Of a DNA stretch of 64,000 bases, positions 7,705-16,514 are shown one piece after another. A program made the position numbers and the translations under genes. The DNA lies in the NCBI GenBank assembly GCA_900315315.1, contig OMYT01000014.1:2656-66655 (forward strand), read 5' to 3'. The notes under the pieces are model-generated. The model was not told the DNA's origin and searched no databases. It was given only the letters and a program-made list of their open reading frames with translations. Position 1 is the first letter of the stretch. Each line of letters begins with the position of its first letter. This DNA comes from an uncultured Eubacteriales bacterium (GTDB lineage: Bacteria; Bacillota; Clostridia; Christensenellales; Aristaeellaceae).

Positions 7705-8151
7705 TCAGATAATATACAAATCCCATTCTCCGGAAAGACGGTCCCTGCATTCCTGGATGAATTCGGAAAGCTTTTTGTTCTTTGCAAAATCCAGCAGCAG
7801 GCCGTTCATTCTTTCCCAGAGACAGGTATTGACTGCGCTTCGCAGGCTTCGTCCGGTTTCACCTTCAGCAATACTGAGCTCTTCCAGAATGCTGTTGTCC
7901 AGTGCATTCAGAATCTCCGCAATGCTGATTTTGTCCGGTTCCCGGGATAGTGCATATCCTCCGCGCAGCCCTTTCTGAGCACGGATCAGTCCGGCCTGCC
8001 TCAGCTGCGTCAGGATCTGTTCCAGATATTTCTGGGAAATATTCTGCCTTTCCGCAATATCCGGTGCGGATACGCTGGTTCCGTTTTCCGCGTACAGCGC
8101 GATATCTGCCAGCGCCAGCATTCCGTATTCAACCCTGGTAGAAATCTTCAT
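7705..8151 (-). CDS. Rrf2 family regulator, CymR-like
   Basis: MKISTRVEYG, ISQKYLEQIL, GLRGGYAL; lacks the IscR three-Cys cluster motif. Confidence 0.9.
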   Translation of the reverse strand: MKISTRVEYGMLALADIALYAENGTSVSAPDIAERQNISQKYLEQILTQLRQAGLIRAQKGLRGGYALSREPDKISIAEILNALDNSILEELSIAEGETGRSLRSAVNTCLWERMNGLLLDFAKNKKLSEFIQECRDRLSGEWDLYII

Positions 8152-8923: not shown

Positions 8924-9775
8924 TTACTCCGTCAGGCCGCCGCCTTCGAGTACCAGGCTTTCCTCATAGTCCAGGCCGTAGGTATCCACCAGCGTAGCCT
9001 CATAGTCCTTGTGGAAGAAGTTCTCCGCCGCCAGCGTCTTGATCTCGTCGTTGATCCAGTTCAACAGTGTTTCATTGCCCTTGCTGACGGCCGGCGCGAT
9101 GGTGTCCTGGCTGCCGAGGGAAGGAATGCCCACCGTGTAGCCCGGATTTTCCAGCGCGTAGGCGATCACTTCCGTATTGTCGTTCGCCCAGGCCACAGCA
9201 TTGCCGTTCTCCAGCGCGTTCTTGGCGTTGGCATAGGTATCATACTTCTGCAGGGAGATTTCCGGATTATTCTTGATCAGGTAGTCCTCCGCCGTCGTAC
9301 CGGAAATGACGATCACCTGATCCCCTTCCTTGATCTCGCTCAGGTCCTTGATCACCCGACTGTCGGGAGAAACAACGCCCAGCGCGACGTTCATATAGGG
9401 CAGCGCAAAGTCAACCTTTTCCGCCCGCTCAGCCGTCACCGTGAAGTTCGCCAGGATGATATCCACCTTGCCGGTCTCCAGGTATTCCACGCGGTTCGCC
9501 GCCTCGGTGGAAACATAGTTGACCGTCAGTCCCAGATCCTCGCCGATCCTCTTGGCAAAATAAACGTCGTAACCCTGATAGTCACCGTTCTCATCCACAT
9601 AGCCGAAGGGATTCTTGTCGGAAAATACGCCGATATTGATCGTGCCGCTCGCCTTGATCTCATCCAGCGTCCTGTAAACCTTTCCGCTTTCGGCATTCAC
9701 CGCCGCCAGGGAAAGAACCAGAGTCAGAAGAACCAGAACCGCTGTTATCTTTTTCACTGTGTTATTCATAATCAT
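8924..9775 (-). CDS. Amino-acid (probably cysteine) ABC transporter substrate-binding protein
   Basis: Signal peptide; family-3 SBP motifs VFSDKNPFGY and ANFTVTAERAEKVDF; operon context. Confidence 0.9.
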   Translation of the reverse strand: MIMNNTVKKITAVLVLLTLVLSLAAVNAESGKVYRTLDEIKASGTINIGVFSDKNPFGYVDENGDYQGYDVYFAKRIGEDLGLTVNYVSTEAANRVEYLETGKVDIILANFTVTAERAEKVDFALPYMNVALGVVSPDSRVIKDLSEIKEGDQVIVISGTTAEDYLIKNNPEISLQKYDTYANAKNALENGNAVAWANDNTEVIAYALENPGYTVGIPSLGSQDTIAPAVSKGNETLLNWINDEIKTLAAENFFHKDYEATLVDTYGLDYEESLVLEGGGLTE

Positions 9776-9825
9776 AATCTCCTTTTTGGGCTTTGCCCTT
9801 TTTTTATGTGTTCACCAATCAACTA

Positions 9826-10632
9826 TTATGAGTATTGGGCCGAAGGGATCCGGGGACGATCGGAAAGTCCCTGGTTATCTCCCTTGGATGTTCTTGAGTA
9901 TTCAAATGACTGCAGGAATCTTCGGGCCAGTTCGGTCTTCGGATGGTCGAAGAATTCCTCCGGGGTCGTGTCGTCCCGGATTTTTCCCTCCTCCAGCAGG
10001 ATAATCCGGTCCGCAACCGCTCTGGCAAACTGCATCTCATGCGTCACAATGAGCATGGTCTTGTTCTGATCCGCCAGCTGCAAAATGACTTCCAGCACCT
10101 CCCGGACCATCTCCGGGTCCAGTGCCGCCGTCACCTCGTCAAACAGCAGGATCTCGGGGTGCATACACAACGCTCTGACAATCGCCACCCGTTGCTTCTG
10201 CCCGCCGGAAAGCTGTCTTGGATAGCTGTCCGCCTTATCCGCAAGGCCGATACGTGTCAGCAATGTCATCGCTTCTGCTTTCACCTCCTCCTTCTGCCTG
10301 TGCTGCGCCTTCATGGGCGCCAGCAGAATATTGTTCATCACCGTCAGGTGAGGAAACAGCTCATAACTCTGGAAAACCATTCCGATTTTCTGCCGGATCT
10401 GCGGCAGGTCCTTCGCACCGGACCTGATCGGCTGATCACCGAGGCGGATCTCACCGTTCTGGATTTCCTCCAGCGCGTTGATGCAGCGCAGAAGGGTGCT
10501 CTTCCCGCTGCCGCTGGGGCCGACGATGACGATGACTTCCCCCTTGTGCACCTGCAGGCTGACATCATAGAGCACGGTCTGGCTTTCATACTTCTTCATC
10601 ACGTGCTCGATCGTCAATACCGGTTCCGCCAT
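9826..10632 (-). CDS. Amino-acid ABC transporter ATP-binding protein
   Basis: GPSGSGKS, LSGGQ, FDEVTAALD; the C-terminal tail reads through a repeat element. Confidence 0.95.
   Translation of the reverse strand: MAEPVLTIEHVMKKYESQTVLYDVSLQVHKGEVIVIVGPSGSGKSTLLRCINALEEIQNGEIRLGDQPIRSGAKDLPQIRQKIGMVFQSYELFPHLTVMNNILLAPMKAQHRQKEEVKAEAMTLLTRIGLADKADSYPRQLSGGQKQRVAIVRALCMHPEILLFDEVTAALDPEMVREVLEVILQLADQNKTMLIVTHEMQFARAVADRIILLEEGKIRDDTTPEEFFDHPKTELARRFLQSFEYSRTSKGDNQGLSDRPRIPSAQYS
9840..9874. repeat. Stem-loop repeat family copy 1
   Basis: CCGAAGGGAT-CCGGGGAC-GATCGGAAA-GTCCCTGG. Confidence 0.8.
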
Positions 10633-10636
10633 CGTC

Positions 10637-11311
10637 TCACCCCCATCGTTTCTCCAGTTGCCTTGCCAGCAGGCTCACCGGCCAGCAGAGCAGGAAATAA
10701 AGCAGGAATATGGTCAGGTATACACCGAACGCCGCGTTCGGACTGGACTTCCGGTTTGCCTCGATAATCTGCTGGCCCACCTTCAGGATCTCCACCACGC
10801 CGATCATCAGCACCAGGCTGGTCGTTTTGATCATCCGGGTGATCAGGTTAATGGACTGCGGAATCAGCCGCCTGAGCGCCTGTGGCAGGATCACAAAACG
10901 GAATACCTGCGGCCGGCTGAGGCCCAGAGCCATCGCACTCTCGTACTGGATAACCGGGACGCTGGTCACGGCCCCGCGGACCAGGTCGCTCATCTCCGCC
11001 GTTCCCCACAGGGAGAACACGATCACCGAGGACAGTTCACCGGAGAGGTTCCATCCGAATGCCTTTGCCGTTCCGAAGAAAACGATGAACAGCAACACCA
11101 TCTGCGGCATAATGTGGATGAACTCCAGGTAACACCGCATCAGCACCCGGCCGATCCCGTTTTTCCGGCCCACCAGGATCCCCAGCAAGGTTCCGAGCAC
11201 CATGCTGATGGCGATGGAGATCAGGCTGATCTGCAGCGCCGTCCATAGGCCGCCAAGCAGCCGGGCAAAGTTCTTGCCCTTGAACAGCACTTCAAGTCCC
11301 AAACTCTGCAT
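10637..11311 (-). CDS. Amino-acid ABC transporter permease
   Basis: Hydrophobic; EAA-like loop QYESAMALGLS. Confidence 0.92.
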   Translation of the reverse strand: MQSLGLEVLFKGKNFARLLGGLWTALQISLISIAISMVLGTLLGILVGRKNGIGRVLMRCYLEFIHIMPQMVLLFIVFFGTAKAFGWNLSGELSSVIVFSLWGTAEMSDLVRGAVTSVPVIQYESAMALGLSRPQVFRFVILPQALRRLIPQSINLITRMIKTTSLVLMIGVVEILKVGQQIIEANRKSSPNAAFGVYLTIFLLYFLLCWPVSLLARQLEKRWG

Positions 11312-11951
11312 GCCGGACCCTCCTTTCGAGCAGGCTTCCCAGCAGGGAAACCGGAAGCAGAATCAGCAGATAGAACACCACCAGGAGCACCAGGCATTCG
11401 GTCGTTTTATAGTACAGGCCGATCTGGTCCTTCGCGGTGAACATCAGATCCATCAGGCTGATGGCGGAAAACACGCTGGTCTCTTTCAGCAGGAAAATCA
11501 CGTTGGCGGTGATCCCGGGAATACTGATGGCGAATGCCTGGGGCAGGATCACATACCGGAAGGTCTGCAGTCCCGTCAGCCCGAGGCTGAGCGCGCTTTC
11601 ATGCTGAATCTTCCCGACAGCTTCCAGGCCGCTGCGGAACGCCTCCGCCATATAGCTTCCGCCGAGGAAAGCCAGACCCGCGACGCCGCAGGTTTCCGGA
11701 TCGGTTTTGATGCCGATCTTCGGCAGACCGTAATAGATGAAGAACAGCTGCACCAGGAGCGGCGTGTTCCGGCTGAGCTCGATATAGACCGAGGCCAGCT
11801 GTTTCAGCACCGGGATCTTCATCTGCCGGACCACGGAACAAAGCAGGCCGACAAGTATGGCAAAGAGGATACCGAGCACGCCGATCCGGACGGTCAGCAC
11901 CGCCGCCTTCCCGTAAAGCGGCAGGATCTTCGCCACATATTCCCAGTCCAC
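11292..11951 (-). CDS. Amino-acid ABC transporter permease
   Basis: RNTPLLVQLF and QHESALSLGL motifs. Confidence 0.92.
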   Translation of the reverse strand: MDWEYVAKILPLYGKAAVLTVRIGVLGILFAILVGLLCSVVRQMKIPVLKQLASVYIELSRNTPLLVQLFFIYYGLPKIGIKTDPETCGVAGLAFLGGSYMAEAFRSGLEAVGKIQHESALSLGLTGLQTFRYVILPQAFAISIPGITANVIFLLKETSVFSAISLMDLMFTAKDQIGLYYKTTECLVLLVVFYLLILLPVSLLGSLLERRVRHAEFGT

Positions 11952-11968: not shown

Positions 11969-13258
11969 TTACAGGCTTTTCACCGCATTGAATCCCTTCT
12001 CAAGGTCCCCGATGATATCATCAATGTGCTCGGTGCCGATGGACAGCCGGATCGTGTCCGGGCGTATGCCCTGATCCAGCAGTTCCTCTTCCGACAACTG
12101 GGAATGCGTCGTGGAAGCCGGATGGATCACCAGGCTCTTCACGTCCGCCACATTGGCCAGCAGGGAGAAAATCTCCAGATGGTCGATGAAAGCCCAGGCT
12201 TCCTTCTGCGCGCCTTTTATCTCAAAGGTGAAGATGGAGGCCCCGCCGTTCGGGAAATACCGCTGATATACTGCGTGGTCCGGATGGTCCGGCAGGGAGG
12301 GATGGTTTACCTTCTCCACCAGCGGATGGTTCCGCAGGTATTCGACGACTTTCTTTGTGTTTTCCGCATGCCGGTCCAGCCGGAGGGAGAGCGTTTCAAC
12401 TCCCTGCAGCAGCAGGAAAGCGTTGAAGGGGGAGATGGAAGCGCCGGTATCCCGCAGAAGGATCGCCCGGATATAGGTCACGAACGCCGCCGGTCCCACC
12501 GCGTCATAGAATGAAACCCCGTGATAGCTCGGATTCGGCGCCGCGATGTTCGGATACTTCCCGCTCGCCTTCCAGTCAAACTTGCCGGATTCTACGATCA
12601 CGCCGCCCAGCGTCGTACCGTGGCCGCCGAGGAACTTGGTCGCGGAGTGCACCACGATGTCGGCCCCGTGTTCAATCGGACGGATCCAGTATGGCGTTCC
12701 GAAGGTATTGTCGATTACCAGCGGCAGTCCGTATTTGTGGGCAATCGCCGCAATGGCGTCAATATCCGGAATATCGCTGTTCGGGTTGCCGAGGGTCTCC
12801 AGATAGATCGCCCGGGTGTTCTCTTTGATCGCTCCCTCCACTTCCTGCAGGTTATGAGCATCCACGAAGGTCGTCTCGACACCATACTGCGGAAGCGTGT
12901 GCTCCAGCAAGTTAAAGCTGCCGCCATAGATGGTTTTCTGAGCCACGATATGCCCGCCGTTGGCAGCCAGGGCTTCAATCGTGTAAGTAATGGCTGCCGC
13001 GCCGGAGGCCACCGCCAGCGCCGCGCTGCCGCCTTCCAGGGCCGCGACGCGCTTTTCCAGCACGTCCTGGGTGGAGTTGGTCAGCCGGCCGTAGATATTT
13101 CCGGCATCCGCCAGACCGAAACGGTCCGCCGCGTGCTGACTGTTCCTGAAAACGTAGGATGTCGTCTGATAAATCGGCACCGCACGGGCATCCGTCGCCG
13201 GATCGGGCTGCTCCTGACCTACGTGAAGCTGAAGGGTTTCAAATTTATAATTACTCAT
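11969..13258 (-). CDS. metY: O-acetylhomoserine/O-acetylserine sulfhydrylase
   Basis: PIYQTTSY, IYGRLTN, HSATKFLGGHG (PLP lysine), ANVAD; AAGGAG RBS favours ATG 13258. Confidence 0.92.
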   Translation of the reverse strand: MSNYKFETLQLHVGQEQPDPATDARAVPIYQTTSYVFRNSQHAADRFGLADAGNIYGRLTNSTQDVLEKRVAALEGGSAALAVASGAAAITYTIEALAANGGHIVAQKTIYGGSFNLLEHTLPQYGVETTFVDAHNLQEVEGAIKENTRAIYLETLGNPNSDIPDIDAIAAIAHKYGLPLVIDNTFGTPYWIRPIEHGADIVVHSATKFLGGHGTTLGGVIVESGKFDWKASGKYPNIAAPNPSYHGVSFYDAVGPAAFVTYIRAILLRDTGASISPFNAFLLLQGVETLSLRLDRHAENTKKVVEYLRNHPLVEKVNHPSLPDHPDHAVYQRYFPNGGASIFTFEIKGAQKEAWAFIDHLEIFSLLANVADVKSLVIHPASTTHSQLSEEELLDQGIRPDTIRLSIGTEHIDDIIGDLEKGFNAVKSL

Positions 13259-13297: not shown

Positions 13298-13328
13298 AAA
13301 ACAAAAACCGGGGGCTGAAAGCTCCCGG
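13298..13328 (-). terminator. Attenuator terminator in the metY leader
   Basis: ccgggagct-ttc-agcccccgg followed by TTTTTGTTTT, between promoter and metY. Confidence 0.75.
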
Positions 13329-13365
13329 GCAGAACTCAGACTGAACAATCTGATCCTCCGTATCC

Positions 13366-13476
13366 TCATGAGGCGCAGCAGAACACAGCCGGATACCTCT
13401 TCACGGAGCCTGCCCGGGAGAAAAGCATTCGACAACACATGGTTTTCCGCTCCTTACGGCTGAACCTGGCAGACAT
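13366..13476 (-). CDS. Putative Cys-rich leader peptide MSARFSRKERKTMCCRMLFSRAGSVKRYPAVFCCAS (alternative start 13440)
   Basis: AGGAGG-8nt-ATG at 13476 and AAGGAG-9nt-ATG at 13440, in frame; two Cys-Cys pairs. Confidence 0.65.
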   Translation of the reverse strand: MSARFSRKERKTMCCRMLFSRAGSVKRYPAVFCCAS

Positions 13477-13509
13477 CCCGGGCACCTCCTCTCTCTTTTG
13501 ATTGACTGA

Positions 13510-13546
13510 ATGATATCACCATTCACCTACTATGTCAATAGGGAAA
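13510..13546 (-). promoter_or_regulatory. metY operon sigma-A promoter with 25-bp operator
   Basis: TTGACA-17-TATCAT; imperfect palindrome 13522-13546. Confidence 0.8.
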
Positions 13547-16477: not shown

Positions 16478-16514
16478 ATTATAACTCCTTTCGCCTACTG
16501 CGTCAATGGGTGAA
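16478..16514 (-). promoter_or_regulatory. iscS promoter with 25-bp operator
   Basis: TTGACG-17-TATAAT; imperfect palindrome 16490-16514. Confidence 0.8.

Follow-up and report, generated by a model that had tools for sequence, protein, structure and literature searches.

Textbooks place the sulfur amino-acid genes of Firmicutes under S-box, T-box or CymR control, and describe leader-peptide attenuation as chiefly a proteobacterial and actinobacterial device. The usual reason given for that distribution is that RNA polymerase outruns the ribosome in Bacillota (PMC13323073; PMC2965389). In the 64,000-nucleotide stretch of DNA analysed here (hereafter the window), a metY operon is preceded by a leader containing a small ORF with tandem Cys codons, and the original prediction read this leader as a cysteine-sensing attenuator. 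The locus raises the question of whether a ribosome translating cysteine codons could decide, in a clostridial lineage, if transcription proceeds into a sulfur operon. Our analysis favours this reading: the element is probably a cysteine-sensing, ribosome-mediated transcription attenuator, which possibly reads methionine too.

Layout of the metY leader

The leader lies on the minus strand, as do all features described below. The first gene after it is metY (11969–13258; Pfam PF01053; TIGR01326, 621 bits), which encodes an O-acetylhomoserine/O-acetylserine sulfhydrylase and is followed directly on its 3' side, on the same strand, by genes for two permeases, an ATPase and a binding protein that make up a polar amino-acid ABC transporter (8924–11951). 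A sigma-70-type promoter, TTGACA-17-TATCAT with an extended -10 TG (13510–13538; 11/12 matches), is kept in relatives, and transcription would start at about 13503. Between this promoter and the metY start at 13258 the leader spans approximately 245 nt. A Shine-Dalgarno (SD) sequence, AGGAGG (13485–13490), lies within a block that we call box A, 8 nt 5' of the AUG at 13476 that opens a leader ORF of 36 codons plus stop (13366–13476, stop at 13368–13366), whose frame is kept in relatives. An internal AAGGAG (13454–13449) lies 9 nt 5' of an AUG at 13440, a possible second start found in this window only. The candidate regulatory codons are a UGU UGU Cys-Cys pair (13432–13437) with a Met codon (13440–13438) just before it. 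Box B (13425–13433), the 5' arm of a putative anti-antiterminator hairpin, starts within the second of these Cys codons, and is followed by segment 2 (13410–13420), the candidate antiterminator strand, whose 10-nt core is near-invariant across the family. Box C (13388–13396) would form the 3' arm of the same hairpin; in relatives, its 5' extension can instead pair with box D (13370–13376), which adjoins the stop codon and is complementary both to box A (the SD region) and to the G-rich part of box C. A second Cys-Cys pair, UGC UGC (13375–13380), is found four codons 5' of the stop (the fifth- and sixth-from-last codons, stop counted).

Between the ORF stop and segment 3 (13322–13332), folding places a spacer hairpin (13336–13353), at which position relatives carry hairpins of other sequence. 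Segment 3 overlaps the 5' arm of a predicted intrinsic terminator (13298–13328; -12.6 kcal/mol), consisting of a stem at 13328–13308 and a U tract at 13307–13298 with the sequence UUUUUGUUUU. This terminator was missed by a simple terminator scan because its stem contains an internal mismatch. The promoter, a leader then put at about 250 nt, the small ORF and the terminator were thus located where the original prediction had them, with an SD sequence ahead of each of the AUGs at 13476 and 13440, while the metY SD (13273–13268) falls outside the switch.

An inverted-repeat search bore out the pairing on which that prediction depended: segments 2 and 3 (13410–13420 and 13322–13332) are complementary over 11 nt at 100%, overlapping the terminator 5' arm, with a duplex energy of -25.8 kcal/mol. 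The same search returned a 9-nt, 100% complement between 13411–13419 in segment 2 and 13476–13484 in the SD-AUG spacer, a strand termed segment 1 (1:2 duplex, -20.0 kcal/mol) and peculiar to this window. The spacing claimed between the first Cys-Cys pair and segment 2 was reproduced, at 11 nt from the second Cys codon to the segment 2 start. Shuffling the 221-nt leader 1000 times with dinucleotide composition kept gave an exact inverted repeat of 11 nt in only 3 cases, and the minimum free energy (MFE) of the whole leader is ordinary (z = -0.24); the signal lies in specific complements rather than in overall stability.

Exclusion of the SAM-I and T-box families by Rfam had been proposed as a check, and no family matches. 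With Rfam 15 the window gave no match at the gathering score, and at E up to 10 the leader gave chance-level matches only. The T-box model (RF00230) has no match in the leader at the gathering score or at E up to 10, and finds four to eight T-boxes elsewhere in the genome, at least four of them above the gathering score, with contigs C168 and C122 among the sites. The SAM-I riboswitch model (RF00162) has no match in the window and one elsewhere in the genome (G000 contig C134:68731–68846). Three RNA-based sensing systems, SAM-I, T-box and the candidate Cys leader, are thus found side by side in this genome. The lack of an Rfam match also tells against a different interpretation, in which the leader RNA is a switch that binds a ligand or protein, its near-invariant nucleotides forming the pocket and its A:D pairing a closing P1 helix, with the ORF incidental.

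Reading frame and cysteine codons in related leaders

Related leaders were collected into a set of 62 distinct sequences by a strict definition and 76 by a looser one; they share ancestry, and counts over them are not independent. Their hosts are rumen and gut Clostridia. A DNA search of 40 related genomes detected leader pieces, namely the promoter, the block of Cys codons and segment 2, and the terminator block, in 20 of the 24 genomes from the same genus, commonly with several loci per genome. A covariance model of the core gave one to three copies in 27 of 41 genomes of the genus, with one in the genome studied here; neither this model nor the pattern revealed a second copy in that genome, which is 89% complete. 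A pattern scan of the order located the block in 11 of 401 genomes, spread over eight families, with 0 matches in a reversed control. Loci fetched via MetY show the block upstream of metY in many rumen metagenome-assembled genomes (MAGs) labelled Lachnospiraceae or Clostridia, and it is also found upstream of metY in Guopingia tenuis NSJ-63 (Christensenellales; L076). MetY itself is 85–97% identical across MAGs labelled Lachnospiraceae, Ruminococcus, Oscillospiraceae, Selenomonadaceae, Veillonellaceae and Treponema, a pattern that suggests horizontal spread of metY among rumen bacteria, with or without the leader, or else binning errors.

Twenty further metY loci without the strict motif gave no Rfam match, and many of them carry divergent members of the family or unrelated Cys/Met-rich leader ORFs. 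Other SD-led short ORFs, rich in Cys and Met and encoding peptides unrelated to the present family, lie 150–340 nt upstream of metY in L036, L050, L025, L048, L061 (Treponema zioleckii) and L023/L034. The Rfam scan took in the L023, L034, L050 and L061 leaders and matched no family in them (L025, L036 and L048 lay outside it).

The leader ORF is probably translated, judging by how its frame is preserved. When an SD-preceded ATG was sought regardless of frame, the sole one present was in frame with the Cys codons, with no stop between, in 33 of 35 leaders, and an in-frame search found an SD-led ATG in all 62. The distance from start to Arg codon in these 62 leaders takes nine values (18, 27, 30, 33, 39, 42, 45, 48 and 51 nt), all multiples of 3, and the other two frames contain 18–26 stops over the same span. 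In every leader, the ORF stop falls 60–90 nt 3' of the Arg codon and 23–40 nt 5' of segment 3. A frame held over nine start spacings, with the SD 5–9 nt 5' of the ATG, is not what an incidental ORF in a binding RNA would lead one to expect. The same point is made by L071, L073 and L075, in which box A lacks its GC-rich part: GGAG is retained, with the ATG 5–9 nt downstream. A protein-database search with a 41-residue family member yielded no candidates, and such leader peptides are a class of small ORFs that is absent from gene annotation.

The proposed alignment of leaders for conserved Cys codons gave a clear outcome. At least one Cys codon is present in the two codons preceding Arg-Met in 62 of 62 leaders, and Cys-Cys in 36 of them; in three leaders with a non-Cys codon beside the Arg, the Cys is in the codon before that. 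Copy number at this site ranges from one to three, several leaders having three, and UGU and UGC exchange synonymously. Codons that vary in synonymous form and in number, with one or more Cys always retained, again argue against a binding pocket in RNA and for a codon that is read. A single Cys codon appears to be sufficient in many members. The G and U of such a lone codon also form part of box B, so structure might explain some of its conservation. Across the leaders, segment 2 begins a constant 11 nt after the last Cys codon.

Both of the tandem Cys pairs that had been described are present in the window; the second is not universal among relatives, though a late in-frame Cys is common. Cys makes up 9.4% of the variable C-terminal part in frame against 4.7% off frame (Fisher p = 2e-4, the sequences being non-independent) and 1% of the N-terminal part. 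Within the last four residues, Cys occurs in 23 of 35 relatives and Cys-Cys in 7 of 35. A conserved 12-nt box about 75–90 nt after the first Cys codon (for example in L082, L086, L089 and L107) encodes Arg-Cys-Cys-stop; many leader ORFs close with Arg-Cys-Cys-stop or Arg-Cys-stop, and the second pair in the window fits this. These kept Cys codons near the stop are unaccounted for by the stall model.

Methionine might be read as well as, or instead of, cysteine if Met codons before the Cys and after the Arg also cause regulatory stalls. One or two Met codons occur among the four before the Arg in 50 of 62 leaders, but the remaining 12 have none there, and Cys is never missing. The Met after the Arg is invariant; it also sits in box B, which provides a structural explanation, and a ribosome stalled on it would mask some of segment 2. 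As methionine sensing would predict, metY and metNQ belong to the regulon; for methionine control, however, the genome carries a SAM-I riboswitch at another site. We consider a role for methionine possible but doubtful.

Exclusive pairings and the predicted switch

The 10-bp antiterminator helix between segments 2 and 3 is paired in 98.6% of cells over 35 leaders. Since it shares a strand with the terminator, the two are mutually exclusive, as originally claimed. The recommended covariation check of this helix found compensatory G-C to A-U changes at three pairs over 76 leaders: pair 8 (six sequences), pair 7 (one) and pair 6 (one), the leaders concerned being L017, L052, L079, L091/L116, L138 and L153. 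A hairpin with a U-rich tail comes right after segment 3 in 68 of the 76. The terminators of L017 and L052, both of which carry compensatory changes, are apparently weak or atypical, either the 3' arm or the U tract being poor, and these two leaders may work differently or be decaying.

The compensatory changes bear on whether the peptide, rather than the RNA, is the conserved object. Nascent-peptide arrest on Cys-Arg-Met-x-x-Ser-Arg-Ala, triggered by a small molecule in the exit tunnel as in TnaC or SpeFL and not by Cys-tRNA charging, would explain why this stretch is conserved over 62 leaders and why its Ala codon appears in all four synonymous forms. Its two middle residues, however, are free, and the segment 2 changes replace the amino acid (Ala by Thr; in L052, Arg by Gln) yet restore pairing with segment 3, so that it is the helix on which selection acts. 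A stall at this point would, moreover, cover segment 2 and block the antiterminator. We judge arrest of this type to be very improbable.

In relatives, segment 2 is enclosed in a two-part local hairpin formed by box B with box C and by segment 2 with the strand between them, with base 2 of the last Cys codon as the first position of box B. B:C is 78% paired, or 81% when the inner helix is included, against 29–41% in slid controls. C:D is 84% paired in relatives, and A:D, which joins the SD region to box D, is 73% paired against 34–48% when slid. Two-sided covariation did not exceed that of shuffles in A:D, B:C or the inner helix, and these three appear as conserved complementarity only. In the window the inner helix is degenerate and segment 2 is captured by segment 1, with 1:2 dominating the MFE of the growing transcript. 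The original prediction of segment 1 as a competitor for segment 2 consequently stands in the window, as a 9-nt perfect complement, and fails in relatives, where the local hairpin sequesters segment 2 instead; as a family feature, segment 1 was ruled out by its absence from other leaders. RNAalifold on a MAFFT alignment recovered the 2:3 helix alone; neither the 5' part nor the terminator yielded a consensus, given loops of varying length and an alignment made without regard to structure.

The A:D, B:C and C:D complements outline a compact fold, and near-invariance extends to synonymous positions, in the CGA codon for Arg and in the Ser-Arg-Ala codons of segment 2, which indicates constraint at the RNA level such as a binding RNA would impose. 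The invariant stretches are, however, accounted for by the three-way constraint of segments 2, 3 and 4, segment 4 being the strand with which segment 3 would form the terminator. Taken with the frame and codon evidence above, this makes direct binding of a ligand or protein an unlikely basis for the switch.

The attenuator model can be followed along its default, starved and replete paths. Transcription would start at about 13503 and a ribosome would load at the SD of the leader ORF. Unless a ribosome stalls, an anti-antiterminator would hold segment 2: in the window, the helix of segment 2 with the SD-AUG spacer (1:2) together with a weak local hairpin; in relatives, the two-part local hairpin (B:C plus segment 2 with the intervening strand). 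Segment 3, left unpaired, would then join segment 4 in the terminator, and transcription would end before metY. If Cys-tRNA is scarce, the ribosome would wait with a Cys codon in its A site. Toeprinting places the leading edge of the ribosome 11 nt past the A-site codon, a reach equal to the 11-nt gap between the Cys codon and segment 2, such that a waiting ribosome would cover box B and leave segment 2 just exposed. With a leading edge of about 12 nt, masking would extend over box B and end just 5' of segment 2, which, left single-stranded, would pair with the emerging segment 3 over 10–12 bp; the terminator would be blocked, and metY and the ABC transporter would be transcribed. In replete cells a ribosome at the stop would sit on or near box D, so that box C could re-pair with box B behind it, favouring termination. 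As read from sequence, the ORF, Cys codons, predicted terminator and exclusive antiterminator are those expected of a leader-peptide attenuator.

In constrained folding of 69 leaders, the median antiterminator probability was 0.28 for ribosome-free RNA, rose to 0.89 when a ribosome was placed at the Cys codon and fell to 0.06 when it was placed at the stop. By individual leader, the stalled state exceeded the stop state by at least 0.2 in 29, with the reverse in 6. This modelled direction fits a switch that is on when the cell is starved. When the RNA ends at segment 3, equilibrium folding prefers 2:3 in every ribosome state (medians of approximately 1.0), and termination under replete conditions must therefore rest on the order and speed of folding, that is, on kinetic trapping. 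Stalling, the kinetic folding order and the direction of regulation are our inferences. Bacillota are classed as a runaway-transcription phylum, with RNA polymerase outpacing ribosomes (PMC13323073), which is an a priori argument against ribosome-coupled attenuation.

Regulon and comparison with known systems

Operons behind related leaders begin with MetY (TIGR01326), often followed by CysK (TIGR01139), or encode MetN/MetQ transporters or cystine-like polar amino-acid ABC transporters; an operon for a PepT-like peptidase and CysK is likewise preceded by a related leader. In silico, the leader family thus marks out a sulfur-related regulon.

An imperfect 17-bp palindrome (13526–13542) overlaps the -35 box of the metY promoter, with an exact pattern match in its own genome, where two weaker sites are also found. 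The same 17–18 nt are found, with little change, in the promoters of most related leaders as well as at other loci; in some relatives both arms change together (CCCA...TGGG). A palindrome-like site is also present at about 16494–16510, upstream of iscS. The last gene of the metY operon encodes an Rrf2/CymR-like regulator (7705–8151). Together, palindrome and regulator gene suggest a second layer of control by a transcription factor, with the palindrome as candidate operator.

The leader has no sequence similarity to the proteobacterial trpL, hisL, pheL, leuL, thrL and ilv leaders, and its likeness to them is one of design. All have an SD-led short ORF with codons for the end-product amino acid, an intrinsic terminator, an antiterminator sharing a terminator strand, an upstream pairing that sequesters the antiterminator strand, and regulatory codons positioned (here by prediction) so that a stalled ribosome frees that strand. 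Unlike those leaders, the present one would read cysteine from just one to three codons and belongs to Clostridia; a local anti-antiterminator hairpin encloses segment 2, and the SD region can pair near the end of the ORF. Leader-peptide attenuators are rare in this phylum, in which transcription is thought to outrun translation (PMC2965389, PMC13323073).

Closer in the amino acid read are the mycobacterial polycysteine leaderless sORFs (10.1101/834739) and the actinobacterial Cys leaders (PMC1262725), which likewise have Cys codons upstream of cysteine-metabolism operons, serve several operons in parallel as a regulon and involve stalling, as proposed here. The mycobacterial Cys-reading short ORFs are leaderless and act on translation (10.1101/834739), whereas here an SD separates the end of the -10 box (13510) from the AUG (13476), and a terminator with a U tract is conserved. 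No terminator hairpins were found with the actinobacterial Cys leader peptides (PMC1262725). Within the Firmicutes, Naville and Gautheret described a His leader peptide before hisS/hisZ paralogues in Bacilli, unusual for that group (PMC2965389). Like that leader, the present one would be a regular Firmicutes leader-peptide attenuator where a T-box would be expected; it differs in the amino acid concerned and is unrelated in sequence, and the His leader is restricted to Bacilli (PMC2965389). Target genes and terminator/antiterminator output are shared with the Firmicutes Cys T-box and S-box (SAM-I), whose sensor is an RNA that binds uncharged tRNA or SAM; neither model matches the leader, and both systems are used elsewhere in the genome. 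In the literature on Cys leader peptides in Clostridia or Firmicutes, where coverage of subscription journals was thin, we found actinobacterial cases only and did not find this element described.

We lean, narrowly, towards a broader view in which gut and rumen Clostridia possess a sulfur 'ribulon': dozens to hundreds of leaders with Cys (or Cys and Met) codons and intrinsic terminators that would coordinate cysteine and methionine uptake and synthesis by ribosome position, under a shared palindromic operator. If true, this would imply tight timing between ribosome and RNA polymerase in a phylum thought to transcribe uncoupled from translation. A conserved Cys-codon attenuator with a terminator, serving multiple operons in Clostridia, would be a clear counter-example to the textbook view, and the leader family offers a compact natural system for asking whether ribosomes time termination in Clostridia. 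It would also account for the control of metY, cysK and methionine and cystine transporters in many abundant rumen and gut anaerobes, in which the upstream regions match no Rfam family.
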